A stretch of 62,478 bases of DNA, taken from the NCBI GenBank assembly GCA_001938485.1, contig MQRK01225273.1, positions 1-62,478 on the forward strand. Reading direction: 5' to 3'. Below the pieces are notes generated by a model that was not told the origin of the DNA, did not search any database, and saw nothing but the letters and a program-made list of their open reading frames with translations. Source of the DNA: Girardia tigrina (taxonomy: Eukaryota). The translations under genes and the position numbers were made by a program. Positions 10,501 through 28,500 of this stretch are shown piece by piece (the first letter of the stretch is position 1; the number at the start of each line of letters is the position of its first letter).

Positions 10501-13500
10501 ACTTTTTTATTTATTTCGGTATCAAATGGAAAAATATATAGGAAATGATAAATGATATTACCTAGTACTAATAATGCCTTACAGGGTTACAAATTATTAT
10601 TATAATACTAAGCTGTCTAGTCTTGACCGGATATTTATTGAGCGTATTGCGTAAAGATAATTTCCTCTATTTATTGTTTAAAAACAATTAAAATATGTGA
10701 AACAAGATAGTGGAAAAGAAAGGTGAAAAAAATTCTTTCTTGAAAAGATAGGCGAAATATGGAAGAATTACCTATTCGATTTTGTTTTTAATGCATTTAA
10801 CACAGATTCGGATTTACATAATGTTATTAAACGCGGAAATTTACTCAAGACGATCCACAAGGAATACATCATTTATCAGATTCTGCGGGCGCTGAAATAC
10901 ATTCATTCTGGTAATGTAATTCACCGCGATCTGAAGGTAATTATTATTATTGTTATAACTATTATGATTATGATTATTACTATTATCAATGATAATTTAT
11001 CATTAATGTTATTGTTATAATAGTAATTGTTATTATTATTACTATTATTATGAATAATATTAATACTATTACTATTGTTAAATATAACATTATTATTATT
11101 ATTACTAATGATTATGATTATTACAAATGAAGACATCACTCCATTGTCAGGGATGTATGAAATAGCAGGAATATATGAAGTAGTAGCGCAGATTGATTTT
11201 ATTGTATCAGAGATTGATGTAGTAGCACAGATTGATGACATAGTAGCAGGGATTGTAACACTAGGTGAAGTGACTGAAGTCACAGACTTCTTCGGAATGA
11301 CTTGGAAGAAATTGATGATGGTCTTGTGTGTCGTCATGTTGTATTACAATCAAAGTAATATGACAAGGTAGGATCAATTACAATGACAATATGCACTGCA
11401 TAGTATGCAGTAAGAGTAAGCTCAGAATAATGATAGATATAAAACAGAAAATGTGTGTTTGTGTGGGTATTTGTTTGGATGTAAATGATTCCCTCATACC
11501 ACGTCAATCCATGTGTGCACACTTTCTTTCTCTCTCACCCACGTTACCTACACTACTCTCTGTCACCCTATAGGTCTGCTGTTCAGTTGTTCTGTATACA
11601 TTTTGACTACTACTAGACTATAGATATGGTATATGCATAAATATGACTCCCTATTTCTTTTTCATTTGTATTTTTTACATGGGGGTCAGACTTGCGTTTG
11701 GGGGGCCGGGCCTGCCGACGTTACAGGCCTGTACTAATGAGTTTCCATTATAAATCAAAACTCAGAATAATTCTGCAATCTTTATTTTTAACAACTTAAA
11801 ATTTGCTCCTTTGTATTATTTAAATAACTTTATTTCAAGAGAATTTTTATAAGAATATTATGAAGTCCATAAAAGATAATATTAGGTATATAATTTTTTT
11901 TTATAAATTATTTATCCTTACAAAATACTTGACAATATTTCAATTCAATATTCAACAAAATTTCTATCAAAAACTTGACAAATTTTCTCTCAAAATTTCC
12001 AAAATTAATTATTTAATGAAAATCATGTCTTGCTCAAGATTCGCTCTGATTGGTTGATTACTCGACTCGATTTTCCTGGACACACACATACTTCGATCAC
12101 CAAAAACAATCAATACTCCCCACAATGCAGTATAATAAGACGAACAAAATTCAATTAATGAATTTTGGATTTTTTTTTCAATAATGAACAACGGAAAAAA
12201 ATCTTGGGGATACAGCATTAAAAGCCACTTACATCAACAAAGCCCGTTCTTCATCCAAAAAAGGTTTTGCTTAGTGTATGGTAGGAATGTAAGGGAATCA
12301 TTTATTTCGAATTGCTTCCCAACAAAGACACAATTAATTCTGACAAATATTGTCAACAATTATCAAAATTGGATGCAGCAATAAATTATCCTTCGAATCT
12401 CGTTACCTTCAAAACTCCCTCACTTGAAAGAAATGTGAAAATTCAGAAGGTTTCAAAAAGTATTTGTAGAAGTTTTTTTGCGAGCAAAAATCAAAGCTTT
12501 TACGAGAGGCATAACGAGTCTTGAACAGAGATGAAGAAGGGTGGTAGAGAGCAACGGAAAATATTTTATTGAATAACTACGCTTATATAAACTTTTAAAA
12601 ACCTCCAAACTCTCATTAAAAATGCTACGAATTTTCCGAACAACGTAATATATTTTATATATCTTCATATATAGCAATAAAACAATAAATATATCAGCAA
12701 TTCTCATTCAATAAATAACAGAAAAATTTTGATTTGAATCGTCTTTGGGCAACGAGAGAGAGGAATTTATAAATAAATATAATGATAGATAATTTATAAC
12801 TTAAATTACGAAACAATTATCATTAATGTTCTTGTTATCATTATATTAATTATTGTTATTATTATTAAATATAATTTTAAAATAATTTTCATCATTTTAA
12901 AATTTAATTTAACATTTTATTTTTTCATTTATTCAGCCTGTTTATTATGAAAATATTATTAAATTATTATTAAATTAATTTTAAAAAATATAATTTAGAA
13001 AAATAAAATTTTCTTTTAAAATAAAAACATATTTTTGTTAAATTGTCAATGTGGTATAGATTATTTTTTTTATCAAAGCTAATATAAAAGACATCTTTTT
13101 TCCATGGATTAAAACCAATATTTTTGTCAGCCTTCCAACGTATTACTCGACACAAATTGTACCGTTAAGTTGTGCGACTTCGGCTTGACGAGATCTTTAC
13201 ATCAAATAGAAGCTGTAAATAATCGGACTGAAGGAATGGATGACTTTAACACAGATCCCACATTGACTGAATATGTCGCCACTCGATGGTACCGAGCTCC
13301 GGAAATACTACTCGGTTCTACCAAGTATACCAAAGCCGTAGATTTATGGAGTGTCGGTTGTATCCTTGCAGAAATATTGCTAGGGAAAGCTCTTTTCACC
13401 GGTTCTTCTTCTTTAAATCAAATTGAAAAAATCGTCTCAGCTCTTCCAAGACCCAGCGAAGAAGGTGAAATAGAAAATACAATATATATATAATATTAAC

Positions 13501-16500
13501 AAAATATATTCATTTTAGATATCAAAAGTATCAAATCCGAATATTGCCGATCTATTTTAAATCAAATTATTTGCAAGTAAATCTACGTTTAAAAAACATT
13601 TTTTATTTACTTACAAAAGATAAACAGTAAAATTACTTTCAATGAATAATATTAATTTCATACAAATGAAAATTTATTTTATCCATTATATTTTTATTCT
13701 TTTTCCCCTTTTTTGTGAACATTTATATGTATTATTGAACCATATTAATGCTTTTTTGATCGGAATTGTTTATTTTGCGCAGATTATTTTATTTGATTAT
13801 TTTCAAGAACACCAATTTTAATTCTCCTGATTCACGTAGTGAACGACAACAAATATATAATGCCTTAAATAGTCGACAAAGTCCACAATATGGTCATGTA
13901 AGATCGGTGATTAAAGGTCTTAGAAATTTCTAACTATTAGGTGTATAACTTAGTTTTTTGAATTTTTTTGAAGAACAGACAAGTTTATTTGTATGACATA
14001 ATAAGTTTTATTCTAATCAAAATATTTTCCATTGTTAATTATGATTTTCGACCATCTTTCAGGCAAATTATGAATTCCATCGAAAAAAAGTTTTGGTCTT
14101 TTGATGCCATCCATTGTTCCAGCCATTTTTTATATGTTTCTGGTTTCTGAAGTGCTGGTCCCGAAGAGCGCTTTGCATTGATCGGAACAGATGATAATCT
14201 GATGCGGCACAATCTGGTGAATAGGCAGCATGCGGTAGAATTTCCCATTTAAGTGCTTNNNNNNNNNNNNNNNNNNNNNNNNNNNNNNNNNNNNNNNNNN
14301 NNNNNNNNNNNNNNNNNNNNNNNNNNNNNNNNNNNNNNNNNNNNNNNNNNNNNNNNNNNNNNNATTTCATTAACTGTTGTTGGTAACGTTCTGCATTAAC
14401 AGTTTCATTCGAATTCAGTAGCTCATAGTACAGTACACCTTTCTGATCCCACCAAATGCACAACATAACCTTGCTTCCATGACTGTTTCTTTTTGCTGTT
14501 GACGTGGACGGTTCGCCGGGATGAACCCACGTTTTCTTGCGTTTAGAGTTAACATAATAAATCCATTTTTCATCTCCTGTCACAATATTATGCAAAAACG
14601 ACCATCTTCGTTGTCTTGTAAGAAATGAATTGAATATCAGTAATCGACTTTCAATGTTGGCTTGATTCAATTCATGTGGTATCCATTTCCCTTCTTTTAG
14701 AATCATTTTCATAGCATGTAGACGTTTACTTATGGCTGCTTGAGTAACATTTAACTGTTTTGCAAGCTCTTTCTCTGTTTGAGTATAATCTTCCTTCAGT
14801 AATGATTCCAAATCTTCANNNNNNNNNNNNNNNNNNNNNNNNNNNNNNNNNNNNNNNNNNNNNNNNNNNNNNNNNNNNNNNNNNNNNNNNNNNNNNNNNN
14901 NNNNNNNNNNNNNNNNNNNNNNNNNNNNNNNNNNNNNNNNNNNNNNNNNAAAACTGTCTGCAGCTTTTTTCTTTTGATTAAAGCAAAACAGTAGTGCTTC
15001 CCGCAAATACTGTTTTGTTGGTATGAAAGTTGTCATGCTAAAACGTGATTAAAAATATGTTTATGACGTATTTAAGGTCAATGATCTATTTACTTTTAAT
15101 GCCTCGATTTCAGTACTTTAAAAATCTGTACGTACAACTGTAAAATAATGCTTATTACAAAGGTTACACCATCTCTTAGAAAACCCAAAAAAACTAAGTT
15201 ATACACCTAATATATAGAATTGTCAGATAAAAAAATATTTCGTATCTTAACTGTGGAATTAGGGATGAAAAACCTTTCGGCAAGATGAGTTCCTTCAGAG
15301 AATGAGAATTCGTCATGTACAAATTAAAAAATGGAGATCAATGGGTTTTTTAACCCTCAAATATGATAATATCAGTGAAAAAAGCTTGAATATATATTTT
15401 TTTCAGTCTTTATATGCTAAAAATATAACAAATTGACTTTCTTATCAAGGGCCAACCATTAAACGTTGAATATTACATTAAACATTTTAGAATGCCGTAA
15501 GAAAATCCATTTTCATTGGAACAATATAGGTTCCCATAGAAGTTCTGTTCTTTCAAATTGCCATTTCAGTCAAATTACATCGATGAGATTTCAGATTGTT
15601 TTGGGTTTGATATAAAGGGTAAAATTGAGCGGATTGTTTTGATTATGCTAAGTTTCGTCTGAAAAATTAGCTTTTGGTTGACTGCTAATTGCTATCTGTA
15701 TCATATGTATCCATTGGAAGCAGGATATTTCGATGCCGGACATTTTGATACCGCCGTTTCGACGCTGGGACTTTTTGACGCCGCCGTTTTGACGAGGGGA
15801 ATAAATAAATAATATTTATTAAAATATTTCCACATGATTTCATAAAATTTAAAATTTAGAAAAGTTTTATATGCCTTATTTTTATATTTCGATGTTAACG
15901 TTCATATGATTTTACTAAGATTTGAAACACATGAAAATAAACATAGAAAAATAAATAATTAAAAACTGAAAATAAAACTTTTATATTATGTATTGGAAGA
16001 TTCCTATTAATGAATCAATTAATTATAAACATTTGTATGTATAATTACTTTTGTTTATTTACTTCAAACTCTTTAATTTTCACTGATTGATTTGTTTAGT
16101 CACAAATTAAAATTAGTTTTTTTTATTAAATATTTGAAATTTGTAAAAAAAATAAATCGATTAAATTGCAGTTGGTTTAACTGCATCAATTGTAATAAAA
16201 TCTTAATTGAATAAAATATAAAAGTTTTAAAAAGGTGAATTGAGTTTTGTGTTTTTCATTGAATTCGAAATCGAAAATTTGAAAACAAAATTTAAAAATG
16301 GGCAACTATTTTGATAGCAAATCGTGTTTGGACTTAAATGGGAATCGTCAGCAATTACTTTCGGATGATCGATCGAGAGTATCACCGATCGATTCTTCCT
16401 CCGGCGACTATGCGGAGGATTTGGTGAATTGTTTTTTCATTAGTCGTGGTCTGGGAAGTAAGTCGATGTTGCTCAGGCAGAGTGGCCGCGATGTTTGGAC

Positions 16501-19500
16501 AGACGGAGAGGAAAATAATCGATTTGAAATGGGAGAAATTAAATTAAAATTTGTGGATTCCGTTAATAGAACTGATCCTTTTGAATGTCGCAAGCTTAGT
16601 TAAATTGACCGAATCACTAGGAATTCCTTCTAAAAAAATAAATAATTTAAAGGACCTAGAATGTTTCGTAGGATTGTTGAAGCTATTATTTCTAGATCAG
16701 AGAATAAGAACAAGAAAGTGGAGATTGAAGGAGAATTATTATACATTACCTTGACCGCACAATTACCCGAAGTTCTAGTCGAGCGTTGGGAGAGAACTCG
16801 TCTTTCTGAAGGAAAACCTCAGAATTTATCAGTTTTAAAGGATTGGCTAATAAATGACGTGGAAATAAAGCTGACCGCTGCGGAAGCCGTTCATTGTATT
16901 AGCACATTCAATCCCAAACAGCGAAATCAGAATATTAGAGAATTTTCTAAAGGAAAATCGTTCTTTCAAAAAGAAGAAAGAAAACCAACTGGATCGAAAA
17001 GAAATTAAAAGAACACCATGTTGAGATTTCCAAAAGTGTTTCTGCAAAAGAGGAAATGTGTGTAGATACATACACGATCTAAAAAAGGAAGAAAGTCCAA
17101 TCAAATGTAAATATTTCGAATCCGGCAATTGTAGATATGGAACTAATTGTAGAATCCTTCATATAAAGACAAACGACTCGAATCCTGATCAAAATTCAAA
17201 AATAGAAGAGAAAGAACATAAGAAAATTAGAAAGAAAGAAAATGAGAAAGATAATCAAAATGATGAGTGCCTTCTTCCGCATTTCTCAGTATTAAGAAGA
17301 CAGAAAGAAACCATCAAAGTTAGAATGGTATTCGATGCAGCCGCTAAATGGCAAGGAATTTGCCTGAACGACAAGATTCACCAAGGACCAAAATTACAAA
17401 CAGACCTGTTTGAGATTTTACTTAGATTTTGAAGATTCAATATTGCTTTAACGTGCGATATTGTAGAGATTTTTCTACAGATAAAAATTAAAGAAACAGA
17501 CAGACGGTACATGCGATTTTTGTGGAGAAAGAATAACGAGTTAGTGAAATACGAATTTAACAGGTTAGTGTTTGGAACTAATGCGTCCCCATTTTTGGTA
17601 CAATGAATTAGTAAAATGAACGCGGAAAGACATGAAATCATTGTCAGAAGCCACAAAAGCAATTTTGGAATCAACGTATATGGATGACAGTTTGATATCA
17701 GTTGAGACAGAAGAGCAAGCGGTAAAAATGTATAAAGATTTAAAATGGTTGTGGAAGCAAGCTGGGATGGATGCTAAGAAGTGAGTGTCTAATTCACAAA
17801 GTTTGAGAAACATCATTCCAGAAGGAGACAAAGCAAAGGTATATCAAATTCTAAATTAGGATGAGAAAGTTACTAAAACGCTGGGTTTAATATGGGACCC
17901 AGAACGAGATGAATTTTCGTTCAATGCTAGAGAAGAAGTTACGGAATGGTGTACAAAGCGTTAGATTTTAAGTGCATTGGCCAAGGTTTACGACCCGCTT
18001 GGTTTCCTAACAACATAAATAATGCTGGGAAAATATTAATACACGAAATCTGGATGAATGGCACCGATTGGAACGTCGAAATTTCAGAACCGTTAAAAAT
18101 TAGAGTCCAAAACTGGGTTGAACAACAAAAGAATCTAGATACAATTCGTATCAAAATAACTTTAATTGAAAAAGGAGGAAAAAATCAAATCCATGTCTTT
18201 TGTGATGCTTCTAAGGATGCTTTCGGAGCAGTTAGTTACATCAGAGAGATTTAAAAGAATGATGATAACACTAATATAATAGCAGCGAAAGGAAAAGTAT
18301 GTCAACAAAAACAGTTTCAATTCCACGATTGGAATTAATGGCTGCGGTAGTCGGAGTAAAGTTGACGAGAAAATTAGTCAGTGCCTTGGGTATAACCATG
18401 GATGAAATCCTTTTTTGGACTGACAGCATGGATGTATTGTATTGGGTGACAAGATACGGGATAAAGTTTAGTACATTTATTGCTAATCGAATTGGTTATA
18501 TTCAGGAATTCGCAAGAGGAAATCAATGGAGATACGTGCCATCAAAGGAAAATTGGACCGATATTCCTTCTAGAGGGTGCTCAGTGACACAACTTTCAGA
18601 AATGCAAAAAAGGTGGACGGGCCAGAAATTCCTTCAACTCCAGGAAGAAAATTGATCAGAACGACCAAAAGAGTTAAAACGGAAGTGTGGTTAGAGAAAT
18701 AGGGTGTTGTCTTGAACACAGTGCATATTGGTGAGAAAAATGATTCCGAGAATTCCGTGGCTAATAATCATTATTCGAAATGGAGAAAATTGGTCTTAAA
18801 AAGAATATCCGAGACACATATGATAGATAGAGTTGAGGAAGCTGAAAATGATCAATTAAGAAAGTGAGTTTGAATTAGCAGAAAAAGAAATAATAAAGAA
18901 GATCAATAAGAATGGTTAAAATCGCAGATACAATTAATTAAGACAGGAAAAAAACTTAAAGCAAAGTATTCAATATTAAAAGCAAATCCTATGATTACAG
19001 AAGACGGACTGTTGAGAAGCGACAGCATAATAGTGAAATCTGAGTACCTTCCTTGGAATTTACGATATCATTCGTGAACCGTTGAAAGCGTTCGATAAAA
19101 TCTGAATTGATTTCGCTGGTCCGATCCTTACGAAACAAGGACAGAGACACATTACAAATTATTTCATTTTATGCCCAAAAATCCTAATTAATAACAAATT
19201 ATTTCATTTTATTCCTAAAATTCCTAATTAATAACAAATTATTTCATTTTATTCCTAAAATTCCTAATTAATAACAAACTATTTCAGTTTATTCCTAAAA
19301 TTCCTAATTAATAAAAAACTATTTCATTTTATTACTAAAATTCCTAATTCATAAAAAATTATTTCTTTTATTCCTAAAATTCCTAATTCATTTCAAATTA
19401 TTTCATTTAATTCTTATAATTCCTAATTCATTACAAATTATTTCATTTTATGCCAAAATATCCTAATTTCTGGCGTCGAAACGTCCCGGCGTCGTAAGGT

Positions 19501-22500
19501 CCCCACGTCGAAACGGCGGAGTCAAAATGTCCGGCGTCGAAATGTCCCGTACCCGTATTCATTGCCTTGTAAAGTACGAAATGATAGAGTAAACTTATTT
19601 TTTTCTCAAACGGCTATTGACAGCTGCCAATGGTTAAATTTGAGAGAATAAAATTGATCGCGGTTAAAGTATTTTTATTTACCCTGTTTTATGGTTATAT
19701 GGTGGCACCTTAGAAGATTTTAAAAGACAAAATTTTACCCCGAAAGCACCTTAGTAAAGAGTGGAACCTTAGTTAAAAGTGGCACCTTAGTAAAACGAAA
19801 CAAAAATTAAAAAAAAATTTCCATCTTTTTCAATGATATTTTTGAATCATCATAATCTTCATCTTCGCTACCAAAATTATTTTCATCCAACAAAATATCA
19901 ATGAGCTGCTCACGAATACCTTGATCTTCATCTACCTCATCTTTAGATTCTTCAGATTTTTCATCGCTTTCCTCAATAACTACATATTCAACGTCTTTGT
20001 GTTCATTCGGATAAAAATTGATTGCGGTCTTCTTGAAGCCATTTTTGATGGCAGAAACTGGAACTGAATCCCACGACTCTGATATCAAATGACAAATCTC
20101 ATCATATGAAGCTGTCTTCAAATTTCCTGATTTCGTATATTGCTTACAACCATTAATCATCCAATTTACCCAATGACGACGCAAATGAGCTTTAAATGAT
20201 TTGTTGACACTGATATCCAAAACTTGTAATTTTTTCGTTAATCCACCTGGAATCATGGCCATTAAGGTTCCATTTGCAACAAATTTCGATTTGACTTCGG
20301 CAGTTCGATATCCAGGAGCAGAATTTAGCATAAGAAGTGATTTTGGATTAAAAATTGCCATTCTTCTTCTCAAACATACTTTTTCAAACCACAGAAGAGT
20401 TTCACTGGATGTCATGCATGATTTTTCATTAGCTGATACGATAACATTTTGGGAAACGATCTTTTTGGTATTGTTTTGAGGCGGAAAATGACATATGCGG
20501 GCAATTTATAGCCATCAGCAGTAACACATAAGACGACTGTAAATCGAGATTTTTCAGCACCAGTTTTTGCGACGCGAACATCAGAAGAACCTTTTTGGTC
20601 AACAGTAAATTTTGATGGCATATCAAACGTTACAGGAACTTCGTCCATGTTACCAATGTGTTGAAGATAATATGCTTCTTTGTTTTTTGAAACAAAATCC
20701 ACAAAATTCATCATTTACTGTTCCCAATCATCAGGAAGTTTCTGACCAACTGAACTTACTGCACGCACGGTAAGTCTATTTTTCTTAATGAAGCTACTAA
20801 TCCAAAATATAGAACCTTTAAAATCTTTAATTTTCATTCGTACAGCCATTCCTCTAGCTTCACTTAAAATTGATATTCCGGAAAAAACATATCCTTCTTT
20901 TCTTTGTTTCAGCACCAATTCTTTTAATTTTACTTCTAATTTTGGCCATTTAATCGATCGAATTCTCCTTACAACTTTTGCTTCCTTATTTCCTTTGGCT
21001 TCCATGAGATTCTTCTCGTTCTTCCATCGTTGAATTTGATTGCGATGAACTTTAAAATGTTCAGCTGCCTTTGAATGTAAAGAATTTAATTAACAACATA
21101 CTGTTTAAATTGCAATGTATAAGTCTTTCGCTTTGCACTTGACATTTTTAGAGTACCCCGTTTTATGGTAAATTAAAACTAATTTTCATTTAAAATAAAA
21201 TTTTTAAAAAAAGCATAAAAAGCATTATTAAAAACATTCATAAAAAATTTATTAAAAAATTTAAAAAAGTATAAAAACATATAATAAGATGGCACCTTAG
21301 AAGAAAGTGGCACCAAAAAAAATTTAATAAGGTGGCACCTAAGTAAGCAGTGGTACCTTATAACCATAAAACAAGGTAATTTTTATGAAAAAAGAAATAA
21401 ATTCATTATTATTGATTGATTTTTTAGTAAAATGTTTTTTTAATTCTTTTGAAGTTCTTTATAATGCATTAGTTTAATACATCGTGTGGATTGACTTCAT
21501 CATTGGATTTCTATCTTGAAACACGTTGTCTTAGTTCGATCAATAACCTCTAAGACTCGGTATAATATTAAAAATTCACATGTTCTAAAAATTTCTATTT
21601 TGAACAACCTTTATTACTAGTACGAAAAAAAACAATTATTTTAATTAATCACTGTTTATTTTACTTTTCGGCATTTTGAAGGAAATAGACAATGTGGAGT
21701 GCTACAGTGTCATTAAATTTTATCTATAAACTTAGAGAAAGTGCAAACAAAACCATAAGAGATATCAAAAAAGTTTATAGTGGTCATTTTCCATCCATGG
21801 CGATCCTTTATTTTTTGCTATCAGAGTCTAAGTAATGCAAATGATCAGTGAATGATTCTGGTGGAGGAAGAAGACGAAATGAAATACCAAACGAAATGTG
21901 ATCATAAAACACAAGTATGCAAAATAGCAGCTCAACTGAAAATTAGCTACGATACAGCAATTTGTGAAGCAGATTTGTGCCGACGTTTTTGACTCCAAAG
22001 ATGAAAGAGGCATACTTTCGGTAGGCTCTGACCTACCTGGCAGTTTCTGAGCAAATCGTTACAACTTTTCTTGATAATAATTTACTACTCACGAAGAGAC
22101 CGTACATAGAGGGCATTACTTTTCGTGTCAAATATTATTTATCATCACAGAACCAACAGTTTTTTTGCTTCTGCTTTTGATGATCCCTTGCAAGTATGGT
22201 ATAAACTTGTTGGTAACCAAGGATGCTATATTGAGAAGGATGTAAAACATTTTTTTCATATTAGTAATAAATTGTGTTTAAAATAAAAGTTGTTAGTAGT
22301 TATGTTTCATTTCATACCGAGTCTTGGAGTCAGATCGATAAATTATGAGCATAGATATATAAATTATGCAGATGTATATCTACAATTTATCAAGATATAA
22401 ATAAATTAATGTATATATAAGTTATGCACTTTAAATATTTTTTTCTGTTAATTTCACAAAAATAGGTTTATGTTAACAAATATTTTGTTGATTCAATATC

Positions 22501-25500
22501 ATTTAATTTAGTAACATTTTTTTACAATTCAAAATTTGTCACATTTTAAAATGTTAAAATAAAACAATAAATCATGAATATTCTGTTACAAAACTGAATT
22601 TGTTATTATTACCACATTTTTTATAAACTTCACCTGTTGTCGATCTGTCCGAGAAAAATCTTTCAACTCAAATTTATAAATTAAATACTGAAATAAAACA
22701 TTAAAATAATTTTAAATTAATAGAAATCTTTTGTTAATTTAGTTAAAATATGTTTTAAAAAATGCAATAAAATAAAACATCAAATTATGTAGATTTTATA
22801 ATGGATTTTAAAGAAATTTTATAAAATATTGAAATGTTAATCTATAAAATTAGTGTAATTAAAAATAATAAATTCAATTTTTTAAATAACGTTTTTAATA
22901 AATAACTTGTCAGTATTTATAATCCAGTATTTTTATGTATAATCTGGTCAAAGAAACCGAAAGAAAAGTTCCTCAACAAAAATTGTTTGAATAATTGTTA
23001 TTTGTGATAGAAATAAAGTTTTGCGTTTAATGAATTCAATTCTTGACCAAGAACCCAATAGGTGTCAGAAGTGACTTGTGTTTCACTTGATGACACAACC
23101 CTTCCTTTATGACCCCACCTTATGATGACCATTAATTATATCTATTCAAGTAACCTTGTTAGACATTTCGTTTCATCCAAATGAGGTTGAAGGTTTGAAT
23201 TTTTTATTTTTATAATATAATACATTTTTTATTAAAATATTTTCATCATACTATTTTATTTTGTGTATAATTTATGTGTTATTTAAACAGACCGGGAAAA
23301 AAGTTAAATGAGATTTTTCCAACGAATATCGATCCTGTGGCTTTTGATTTGTTAATAAATTTGTTACAATTTAATCCCAATAAACGTTTAACAATCGAAG
23401 AGGCTCTGGAACACAAATACGTTGAGAAGTACGTTCAGTTTTAATAATAAATATTTTATCAACTTTTTCGTTGCGAAAATTATATGACTTTCTTTCTAAT
23501 TAGTGTAATTGTTACAAAAAGAGGAAAACTAATTCAATATGCTTTGGTTTTAATGAAATGAACAAGTATCCCTTGCTTCAAACGAACCTTTTGTTTCTTT
23601 CCAGTCACATAATATTTGAAAATTTTCACTAATTTTTCCTTTATTAAAAGCAATTTCATTTTGTAAAAAGTATATATATATCCATAGATACTCAGATACA
23701 ATTTTACTTATAAGAATAGGAATTTATCCCACGGAAAGGGAGAGTTCGAATCACACATTGAGGAAAGAGAATAATGAGCTCAATTACTTGAAATAAAGTC
23801 GTTTTTACTAATTAAAGCTGATTATTTTTGCAATGTTATATTTGTTATTAAAAAAAAATAAATAATCTTAACCGTCTTCAAGGTACTTAAATAGAATTTA
23901 ATTTTTAAATCTTGAGTAGGAATTCTTTTCAGGTGACATTACATTTATGACCCATTGACAAAATAAATCAATAATTTAGAGCCATTACTTCCACAAGTCA
24001 ATGAAATTTTACGAATTAGTTCAAAAATAAAAATATTAAATAAAAATAAAGGAGTAATTCATTACAGTCGTCGAAAACCAGAAGTTTCAAAGCCTAATTT
24101 ATCTTTTGAAACATTTAAAAATAATAATAAATTAATTAACAGATTTTATTGGAAATTAAAACTTTAGTTCCATTTACCATTATATATTTAACCGATCTCT
24201 GCACATAAACATAAAGGTAGTAAAGGGTAGTGGCCAAATAAACAGATTTTTCGATTTAGAAATTGTTTAAATTAAAAAAATTGTACTTCCGTATAATGAA
24301 TTTTTTTCTAATATCTCATTTTATACGTTTCAATTTTACATGTTTATCCCAACATCATTCGCGTTATACCAGATTTTTCTTGTTCAATGCGTTTTCATAC
24401 AACACGTAACGTATTAATCGCGTTTTACGGGAGTCTACTGTATTCATTAATTTTATTATTACACAACAATGAGTAAACTATCAACATAGAATTCCAAAAA
24501 CTTTCAAAAATTACCTAAATTATGATTAAAATTACAAACTTAAGAAATCAGATTTTTCGATTTTGAAATTGATTAAGTCTGTTATTTTATTCATTATTCA
24601 CGTAATTTTATTTGTCATTATGAGGAGTTAGTTAAAAATTTCGATTTTCCTAATAATTTATAATTTTTAATTTAAAATTTTGACAAAAAGTTAATAATTA
24701 GAAATTCAGTAGAAATTTTTAAAAAGAAGAACATTTAAAGAAATAATAAACTAAATAAAAGTTATAATGCAAATTTATAATATCAAGCTACTCCAAAAGT
24801 ATTTTTAAAAAAATAAATAGTTTTTATAAATTAATTTTAAAATTAGATGTTTATATAAATGAAAAAAATAATTTTATTGTGCTTAGAATATATTTTAAAA
24901 ATACATAAAAAAAGTTGGATTAAATAAAAATTTCTAAAATAATAGTATAGGATATAATAAAGTATTTTTTAAGTTTTACAAAATCATTGGATTTTATATG
25001 AATGAAATAAATTAATTTTATTTGTAATATATTTTATAAATATATTTTAAAAATAATAAAAAAAGTTTAATTAAATAAAAAGTTAAAAAATGTTATGGAA
25101 TATAATAAATTATTTTTAAGTTAAATAGTTTTTAAAAAATTAATAAGATTTTATTAGAAATGGAATAAATTAATTTTATGTGTAATATATTTTATAAATA
25201 AATTTTAAAAATAATTTGAGATTAAATAGTTGTTATAAATTAATTAAATTTTTATATAAAGAGCATGAATTCATTGATACATAATATATTTTATTTAAAA
25301 GTAATAAAAAGGCTTGATTAAATAAAAATTTCAAAAAAAAGTTTAATTAATAACATTTATGAAGAAACTAATTAACGACAAGGTCAAATAAAAATTTTAA
25401 TTAACGATAAATTTTTTGAAAATCTCGAGTTGTGATAATAATAAAATTTTCATGTTGAATTATGAACGTCGAATCTATTGACAATGAAAGAGGCATAAAC

Positions 25501-28500
25501 ACCATTTACAGCCATCATTAGAGAATATGTTTCTCCTAAAAATGTATTTTCTCTACATCATGACACTTCAAGAATATTTGATCTCTCAATCTTGGCATGT
25601 CTCTGATTTTGTAAAGCTCATTCATATTATTTCCAGGTTCCATGATCCGGAATCAGAAATAACCATTGATCATGAAATAGTTCCTCCGATTAACGATGAA
25701 TGCCAACTATCGATTGAAGAATACCGATCAAAACTGTATGATGTTAGTTTTCCATTATTATCATTTATATAATATATTATCATAATATTAATAATATTTA
25801 ATTTTCTGACAAAACGATGGTGAATGAAATTATAAATTTATAATTATGATTCTCAATGGAAAATTACATGTTCTCTTTTATTTAAGATGATTATGCAAAA
25901 GAAAGCAGAAAAGCAAGCAAGGACTCAAGCTAAAAGATGCGTTGGGGAAAATAAATCTTTACGAGTTAGTTGAAAATTTCATAATGGAAAACATTTTTTT
26001 CTAATTATCTAACTAATGGTTTCCTTATAAAATTATCAATGTTTATTATTGTAAATAATAATAATAATTTTTTGTTTAGTACTAACACTAATTAATTAAT
26101 TTTATTTCTTACAATTATATTTTGTTTTTCTTAATAAATTTAGAAAACAATTTTTTTTTCAAAATTTATAATATTTAATAAAAACAAAAAACAAACTCTT
26201 TTTCTGACAATAAATATAATTTTTGTCCAAAAAATAATATTTATCTTTCAGATTATTTATGTTAATTTTTTAAAAATTTTTGTAAGTAATTGAAGTGTTT
26301 TTATTTTGTGTAATGATTTATATAATTTTATAAATCATTATATAACCTTGATTTATATAATTTTGGTTAAATTTTCTATAATTTGTTTTTGGATATTAGG
26401 TCGTCAAGTATGAAATTTGTATAATTAAAGTCAGTTTATTGATAATAAAAATATTTATATCATTCATCAAAGTATACACCCATATTATCGACATACTTTT
26501 ACAATTTGAGCAGCAACTTGTTGAGGCCATTTGAAAAAAAAATATTGAACGAGAATCTATAAATTCCTGGAAAGCTATTTTTACGATATCATCGAAAGCG
26601 ATTTTTTTCCAATTAAAAATTTGTTCGAATTGAGGAAGAAATATTAGTCGATTGGGGCTACGTCGAGTGAGTATGGAGGATGATCCAAAATTTCCAACTG
26701 AAGTTCCTGTAGTTTTGTCACGGTCTTAAGTGAGTATGCCGTTTCACATTGTCGAGGAGAAAGATATGATTCGACCTGTTCACCAAAGAAGGCTGTTTTT
26801 CTTGGTGACCCAACAGATGCACGCAGCGACAAATGCACGTACCGACAAATGCGCTAAAAGGGGATTACAGAAATGTTTTTGATATTTTTTATAATTAATC
26901 CATTAATGCTAAAAAAATTTTTGAAATATAAATTTAATAAATGTTTATGAAAATTTTTTTATTATTAATTCGTTAATGTTAAAAATATTTTTGAAATATA
27001 AATTTACTATAATGGACAAAAAGATTTTAAAAAACATAAATTTATTATCCATTAAACAATTATCTAAAAGAGACAATCTAAATGTCAATATTAATAGCTA
27101 CTGTGTGAAAATAATCCTTAAATTCACATCCTTTATAAACATTTATTAAATTAATATTTTAAAAATTATTTTTAGCATTAAAGAATTAATAATAAAAAAT
27201 TTCAAAAACATTTATGCAATCCTCTTTTAACGCATTTGTCGGAGTACCGTTTTTCTTTGAGTTTCCGCATCATATCTCTCAATTGGTTTCAGTAACCATA
27301 TGCTGTGATCGACAAATCAGGTTTCATGAAGTCATAATGGATTACAGCTGCGGCAAATCACGAAACACTCATTATCATTTTGTTTTGATGAATTATTTGC
27401 TTTGGACTGTGTTTTGGTGCTTCATTCGTGCCCAACAAGCTTGTTGAACGTTTGTGATTATCATATAGGATCCATTTTTCATCACAAGTGACGATTCGAT
27501 TCAAAAAGTGATTATATTTATAACGAGGAAACATCATCAAGCAATCATCCAAACGCTTTTGTTTCTGCTTTTCATTCAACTCATGTGGAATCTACTTATC
27601 CAAATTTTTCACTTTACTATTTTGAGCGAAGGGATTGAATATTGTTTGTTTTGTAACAGCAAATGTTAGCGGTAAATCATAAGTATTTTGTGATGGATGA
27701 GACTCCACGGTTACCTTATATTCCTTATTTCCATTCATGATTCCAAAAGTATTCTGATATCTTAGTGTCCACATTTGCTAGTCTGACTAACCTTCCCTCA
27801 GTTCGATCTGGTGTTTTCAATAGAGTCTAGTTGTTGAACAGAATCTTCACTTAAAATTGCGATCTATCGATTCGAAAGTCGTTAAATTGTGTAACTAAAA
27901 ACATGCTCAAATTTCTGATTGATTGTGTACCGAAAAAACATTAATTTTGTATTTGTATGTACCTGGACATGTAATGTACAATATGCCTTTGATCGTGTTT
28001 GTATATGTAAATATAAATAATAAATTTGTAAGTATGCTTATGTTTGATAATGATATTATTGTTCTAAAACTATATCAAGATCGTGCAAAATTGTATGGGA
28101 TACGTGTAAATAATGATATTTTAAGGGGTTCTCTGTCTGAAAAGGGAGAGAACTACTGTATTAAAATAACATCAATTAATTATATATTAAGAATGTGCAA
28201 ATTAATGCCCCTGCAATTTGAAAAATTATTATTGTTTTATTTTTAATTAAACATTTTTATTTATATTAAAAATCAAATATTAAAAAAAGCTTTAATTAAA
28301 ATATATTTGATTAAAATTGTAGTATGTATCCTATTTTTAATATAAATTCACATCAGATATGTAATGTTTCGTCATTGTAGAATTTCATTCTATGAACCTT
28401 TACACTGTGATTTGATCTATTTTATACGAATAACATGAATTTATCTTTGTTTTTATCTTTTATTTTAATATAATTTTTGAAACCGTCTGCGAATTGTACA

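Follow-up and report, generated by a model that had tools for sequence, protein, structure and literature searches.

Bel/Pao retrotransposons (Belpaoviridae: Pao, BEL, Sinbad, Suzu and Tas) encode Gag, protease (PR), reverse transcriptase (RT), RNase H and integrase (IN) in that order between short LTRs starting with TG, with motifs defined as LLDxG in the protease, Y[VM]DD in the RT, DAS in the RNase H and DD(45-53)E in the integrase, and with a triple Cys-His box as a hallmark (PMC554778). Retroviruses and LTR elements use the CCHC knuckle as their standard nucleocapsid (PMC554778; bioRxiv 10.64898/2026.03.22.711591). Tas is described as lacking the triple box, with no CCCH finger named for it (PMC554778). 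Host ubiquitin within a polyprotein is known from cytopathic pestiviruses (BVDV Osloss, CP1, CP Rit), in which other host pieces lie upstream and ubiquitin is the signal by which host hydrolases generate an authentic N-terminus, with cleavage shown (PMC8310069, PMC13517609). Spliced host mRNA pieces are found inside LTR elements as LTR-mediated retrocopies, where they replace the ORFs of the element (PMC5131818). The planarian element Burro contains extra host-like domains including a SUMO-like one, but is of gypsy type and keeps its CCHC knuckles (PMC6431247). Of the named Bel/Pao superfamilies (Pao, BEL, Tas, Sinbad, Suzu, Flow and Dan), Flow, reported from a planarian and cnidarians, is a candidate for the lineage described below, and the words 'zinc', 'CCCH' and 'ubiquitin' are absent from the main text of that metazoan survey (PMC3118150).

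Here we describe a Bel/Pao remnant in an AT-rich, 1.43-Gb Girardia tigrina assembly, together with its relatives; "the window" is the whole 62,478-nucleotide stretch of DNA analysed (contig MQRK01225273.1). The lineage has the Bel/Pao gene order, found in the sister copies L051 and L026 and in the polyprotein P0156, as well as short TG-starting LTRs with a short target-site duplication, matches to the DUF1759 capsid and Peptidase_A17 (RNase H region) models, an LLDDAS protease, YMDD and DAS motifs in the window itself and a D(63)D(47)E integrase in P0156. It differs from the described Bel/Pao elements in that two CCCH fingers replace the triple box and that ubiquitin and a host-derived leader precede Gag; since the triple CCHC box is absent, we regard it as a variant lineage rather than as a typical member. 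Unlike the sporadic, short-lived pestivirus insertions in an RNA virus, ubiquitin here precedes Gag as a fixed trait of 12 retrotransposon families, with its cleavage predicted, and in contrast to retrocopies the passengers lie upstream of an intact gag-pol. No description of a CCCH swap or a ubiquitin leader in Bel/Pao was found in the literature covered, a scope that excludes Repbase and GyDB entries and paper supplements, which may describe these families.

The window copy and its sister copies

The element spans 15994-19147 on the + strand of the window, the strand of all of its features given below, and is a dead, internally deleted Bel/Pao copy that, compared to the sister copy L051, shows four deletions and a 3′ truncation. 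The 5′ LTR (15994-16308, 315 bp, beginning with TG) is 93.7% identical to the 3′ LTR of L051 and contains near its end an ATG, at 16298, that opens the leader frame. A primer-binding-site-like motif at 16310-16327 is a decayed form of the family's TGGTAGCAGA motif, which lies directly 3′ of the LTR in L051 and L026, was present in 10 of the 17 family representatives scanned and presumably matches the initiator-Met tRNA. It is followed by a leader passenger remnant at 16507-16643, a piece of a spliced host coiled-coil mRNA recognised by an exon join (L112/L111) in sister copies, and by a deletion junction at 16640-16643 (placed by blastn to L037, L022, L040 and L051) where about 1.4 kb was lost which, judged from the domains of the sisters, held an Hsp90 remnant, ubiquitin, the Gag N-terminus and half of the capsid. 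The C-terminal part of the Gag capsid (16646-17008; the DUF1759 region in sisters, E 2e-11 by Pfam in P0001) is 90-93% identical in DNA to 39 other scored copies and lies one frameshift away from the frame of the fingers.

The two C-x7-C-x5-C-x3-H fingers reported in the initial annotation, one of them with a nonsense change, are present in a single frame between this capsid segment and the RT, as described there. Finger 1 (17019-17075), identified by motif match, is broken by a TGA stop at 17022-17024, the second position of the motif, and finger 2 (17106-17162) is intact, with Pfam models over their cut-offs on 17025-17429 (zf-CCCH_4, 27 bits against a cut-off of 24.6; zf-CCCH, 24.4 against 20.5). 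A second deletion junction, at 17232-17244, removed about 0.9 kb (905-930 bp) including the aspartic protease. This explains two further observations in that annotation: the absence of a visible protease holds for the window copy but not for its family, and the charged linker 3′ of the fingers, though present as sequence, is an artefact of two deletion ends fused at 17232/17244. A protease-less family was thus rejected, the loss being specific to this copy. The remainder (17244-19147), mapped by tblastn with the Pol of P0156 and by comparison to L051, contains the RT (YMDD), RNase H (DAS) and the start of the integrase region, with many stops and frameshifts and Peptidase_A17 matches at E 1e-14 and 2e-8 (Pfam); the copy ends without an integrase core or 3′ LTR.

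The remnant sits in sense orientation in an intron of a MAP kinase gene, exon pieces of which, with a TEY motif, were seen at about 1600-1740, 13113-13470, about 23300-23440 and about 25700-25800 (+); we take this gene to be MAPK15/ERK7-like. Inverted arms at 15723-15783 and 19487-19547, 85% complementary, and a 40-nt tandem array at 19113-19508 enclose the remnant, suggesting that it may lie inside a non-autonomous DNA element. Decayed transposase frames flank the site at 14068-15048 (-) and 19807-21089 (-), and are assumed to be mariner-like and pogo/Tigger-like, respectively.

Complete sister copies are about 7.2 kb long, with LTRs at their ends and near-matching 5-bp flanks, and are laid out as LTR, leader, ubiquitin ending in Gly-Gly, Gag capsid, two CCCH fingers, protease, RT, RNase H and integrase. 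L026, for example, has 7,202 bp, TG...CA LTRs and 5-bp flanks that match at four of five positions, and L051 is built likewise. LTR pairs, 85-98% identical, were present in 11 of 60 loci. The sisters fall into two subfamilies, A, to which the window copy belongs, and B. Four mosaic copies (L053, L057, L060 and L079) combine ubiquitin, finger and protease segments from both subfamilies, a pattern pointing to probable recombination between the subfamilies. Contigs of the sequencing runs X4, X5, X6 and X12 cover the element, a coverage that says nothing on transcription.

The CCCH pair between capsid and protease

The stretch from capsid to CCCH pair matched at 90-93% in all 40 places scored out of 367 candidates, the window included, and the CCCH region was present in 52 of the 60 A/B loci, with that part of Gag lost from the remaining eight. 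Ordinary CCHC knuckles, which the initial annotation allowed that full-length members might carry, gave no match in 20 A/B loci and four matches in 40 more, none of them between capsid and protease. The ligands of finger 1 were kept in 44/51, 47/52, 47/52 and 48/52 mapped copies and those of finger 2 in 46/49, 42/50, 44/52 and 48/51, and each Asp of the LLDDAS protease motif, recovered from the sister copies, in 45/49. In the six frames of the window two finger motifs forming one pair were found, compared to a mean of 0.075 single motifs and no pairs in 40 shuffles.

To estimate selection, 21 copies of subfamily A were compared with 26 of subfamily B by net pN/pS, pairwise on real copies and with within-group decay subtracted. 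The CCCH pair had a net pN/pS of 0.07 (95% 0.01-0.15; net pS 0.40, net pN 0.028), compared to 0.16 for the capsid, 0.24 for the protease, and 0.79 and 0.41 for the linkers flanking the pair, indicating that between A and B the pair is under stronger purifying selection than the protease.

The pair also extends to other families. Family C, a distant one with 276 candidates, possesses a CCCH pair of its own, and one or both fingers are intact in 20 of 20 loci. A Pfam capsid search of the assembly added families E, E2 and F, which have CCCH, families D, H, H2, I and J, which have CCHC, and family G, which has neither. CCHC between capsid and protease was absent from the 20 family C loci, P0005 and P0156. 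Of the 150 best-matching relatives of the Gag-protease region from outside this genome, 96 matched CCHC and two Bel/Pao proteins, P0005 and P0030, carried a CCCH pair at the same place, the other CCCH matches being two cellular proteins and three overlaps with knuckles. The P0030 cluster includes P0156, a stop-free polyprotein of 1,926 amino acids with the CCCH pair, and both P0005 and P0156 come from other assemblies. P0132 is 93-95% identical to family I. Shallow word-index searches (3, 1 and 4 matches) added P0163 as the sole close relative and returned no named CCCH-bearing Bel/Pao element. Given its presence in 52 of 60 sister loci, in families C, E and F and in P0005 and P0156, and the purifying selection on it, the pair is a feature of a Bel/Pao lineage, the first of the two readings that the initial annotation had offered.

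In a capsid and protease tree from which the finger columns were excluded, a branch at 77/63 separates the nine CCCH rows from all others, and a second tree agrees on this branch at 88/80; CCCH sub-clades are found at 100/99 and 87/77, and plain CCHC elements separate at 100/99. Of the 42 plain-CCHC rows, 27 and 33 were omitted from these trees, of 29 and 28 rows, as were three outgroup rows. A 59-row tree, a quick tree only, has long outgroup branches, and the root is unsure. A single origin of the CCCH swap is allowed by this topology, but weakly so (77/63). The nearest ordinary relatives, of LLDD[AG]S type, come from Haliotis rufescens (P0007), Mya arenaria (P0034) and Rhopilema esculentum (P0012); they are about 30% identical to the lineage in capsid and protease, have CCHC knuckles and no ubiquitin match, and belong to the separate clade.

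The predicted fold of the CCCH pair (pLDDT 75) is nearest to CPSF30, POS-1, TIS11d and MBNL1 (Foldseek, best E 7e-4), and all of its top matches are CCCH proteins. The structural match is local, with weak global scores (VIA Z 2.1-2.3), and in whole-model fold searches the matches were filled by ubiquitin. Ligands and fold, together with the Pfam and alignment results, are those of CCCH zinc fingers (C-x7/8-C-x5-C-x3-H). The pair shares its C-x7-C-x5-C-x3-H spacing, aromatic positions and local fold with CPSF30/YTH1, POS-1, TIS11d and MBNL1, but differs from such cellular tandem CCCH proteins in being part of a retrotransposon Gag.

Ubiquitin and host-derived sequence in front of Gag

Sister copies contain a full ubiquitin domain directly 5′ of Gag (Pfam E 7e-17), the predicted fold of which superimposes on ubiquitin with an rmsd of 0.6-1.5 A and a Z of about 16. 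As in a ubiquitin fusion, the ubiquitin fold ends in Gly-Gly and the next residue is not Pro: in A and B the unit ends in LKGG followed by Met, with G78, G79 and the Met kept in 38/44, 42/44 and 37/44 copies, and one decayed copy reads GR at the di-Gly position. Ubiquitin stands directly before Gag, in at least one copy each, in all 12 families or subfamilies sampled, and same-strand ubiquitin was found in 34 of 50 Gag loci of other families from the capsid search, many of the others being short or deleted. In 19 of 19 representatives, which include A, B and P0094 and are not independent, the di-Gly is followed by M, S, A or G, compared to a background of 18%. Met, Ser, Ala and Gly after Gly-Gly make stable, cleavable N-termini. 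The family C unit mostly ends in LRLCGG and the family G unit in KLLGG, and the P0156 unit is too eroded for a Pfam or phmmer match; because of these odd tails and this erosion, cleavage may be inefficient in some families.

Ubiquitin also occurs together with CCHC knuckles, in P0018 and in families D, H, I and J, so that the ubiquitin leader is more widely distributed than the CCCH swap; in family G it is present with no finger. The order of events, a single gain of ubiquitin or its loss in the plain-CCHC clade, depends on the unsure root. In family C (L091-L110), in two family G copies (L159, L155) and in P0005, ubiquitin and Gag are kept and are followed by coiled-coil sequence; RT was absent from the sampled family C and G copies and from P0005, the family C elements and P0005 also keep the protease, and P0005 ends in a CFAP58 piece.

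Upstream of ubiquitin, the leaders contain pieces of host genes. In family A this is part of a host coiled-coil gene, with weak coiled-coil matches only, whose exon junction is already spliced: one host exon (L112) ends before GT, the other (L111) starts after AG, and the two are joined in 14 distinct sister contigs. The family B leader has cadherin repeats (E 3e-8), common to at least 17 other loci, those of family C and P0094 have an Hsp90 piece (E 3e-26), and the A/B leader has an Hsp90 remnant (E 1e-6, PDB search); a direct BLASTP of the A/B linker against P0094 gave no match. E2 carries a piece of proteasome subunit 7 with its OB domain (E 4e-30), and family G sits downstream of an LRR piece. 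The E2 piece (L147:5560-6300, -), an acidic open frame in family C (L097:1615-2396) and an H2 piece in the upstream leader of L152, presumably A20-finger-like, all lie upstream of the primer-site motif and, for that reason, are probably inside the LTR.

Two different LTR types occur in family A, and towards its end each provides an ATG in frame with the leader; between this ATG and ubiquitin the A sisters share no frameshift beyond those private to the reference copy. This continuous frame is read from the shared state of decayed copies, from P0163 and P0168 and from single C and E2 copies. An N-terminal 'MGNYFGS' was considered as a myristoylation signal and set aside, as these residues come from translating the end of the LTR on into the primer site and vary with LTR type.

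A probable nucleocapsid swap and a probably host-processed leader

On the comparisons above, we think it likely that the CCCH pair, standing in place of three CCHC knuckles, is an RNA-binding nucleocapsid and that host deubiquitinases cut ubiquitin off Gag. Translation would start at the ATG in the LTR and continue, by way of the primer site and the passengers, into ubiquitin, Gag and Pol, and host deubiquitinases would cut after Gly-Gly, giving Gag a fixed, stable N-terminus whatever stands upstream. The cleavage step is modelled on the ubiquitin insertions of cytopathic pestiviruses and is, by that analogy, likely (PMC8310069). Because the Gag N-terminus would be fixed by the cut, the leader could tolerate repeated capture by template switching, and switching to a co-packaged mRNA would change it at little cost (PMC5131818). 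The CCCH pair would take over from the knuckles, binding the single-stranded RNA of the element for its packaging and priming.

Ubiquitin is re-captured from the host and so refreshed: at the DNA level, the family C unit shows 90-92% identity with unit 1 of a host tri-ubiquitin gene and 72-74% with a different host polyubiquitin. In family E (L125, L141, L144 and L147), a partial ubiquitin ending in GS stands head-to-tail ahead of the full unit, a probable trace of capture from a polyubiquitin mRNA. Selection on ubiquitin could not be demonstrated between A and B, where a net pN/pS of 0.66 (95% 0.31-1.68) gives no clear sign of purifying selection. All three results would also fit a ubiquitin that is a by-product of the frequent capture of abundant polyubiquitin mRNA, or one that stays attached or is a folding or expression aid only. 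We hold this to be rather unlikely, since the position directly before Gag is fixed in 12 families while identity to host ubiquitin falls from 72/76 to 20/76, since the Gly-Gly end and the small or Met residue after it persist, which an uncut fusion would not need, and since the upstream remnant in family E ends in GS and not GG.

A still less probable alternative is that selection maintains the CCCH pair for binding to host RNA or protein, for example in evading piRNA or decay machinery, while packaging falls to basic stretches of Gag. The capsids of Atlas, a Bel/Pao element, are described as packaging nucleic acid without knuckles via a basic tail (bioRxiv 10.64898/2026.03.22.711591), the linkers around the CCCH pair are lysine-rich, and the nearest folds of the pair are mRNA processing and decay factors. 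However, the pair takes the exact place of the knuckles between capsid and protease, and no CCCH family retains them, whereas a mere addition to Gag would more likely be found alongside knuckles. A one-off capture of a host fragment in the window copy, the second reading of the initial annotation, or a chance Cys/His pattern is refuted. This copy is heavily rearranged and its family is one that takes up pieces of host mRNA, but the region is shared at 90-93% by 40 or more scored copies, the pair is under selection, and it recurs in distant families and other assemblies.

A wider and tentative proposal is that the whole Bel/Pao clade outsources its first polyprotein cut to host deubiquitinases, which would turn the 5′ leader into an exchangeable cassette expressing host gene pieces as separate proteins, and that within this clade a CCCH nucleocapsid replaced the knuckle, its mRNA-like binding pulling host transcripts into particles and driving the captures. 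A lineage in which an unrelated RNA-binding fold replaces the CCHC knuckle and has stayed under strong selection would be a natural test of what a nucleocapsid requires. The ubiquitin leader would likewise let an autonomous element transport pieces of host genes with no damage to Gag, as an enduring equivalent of the ubiquitin signal in pestiviruses.
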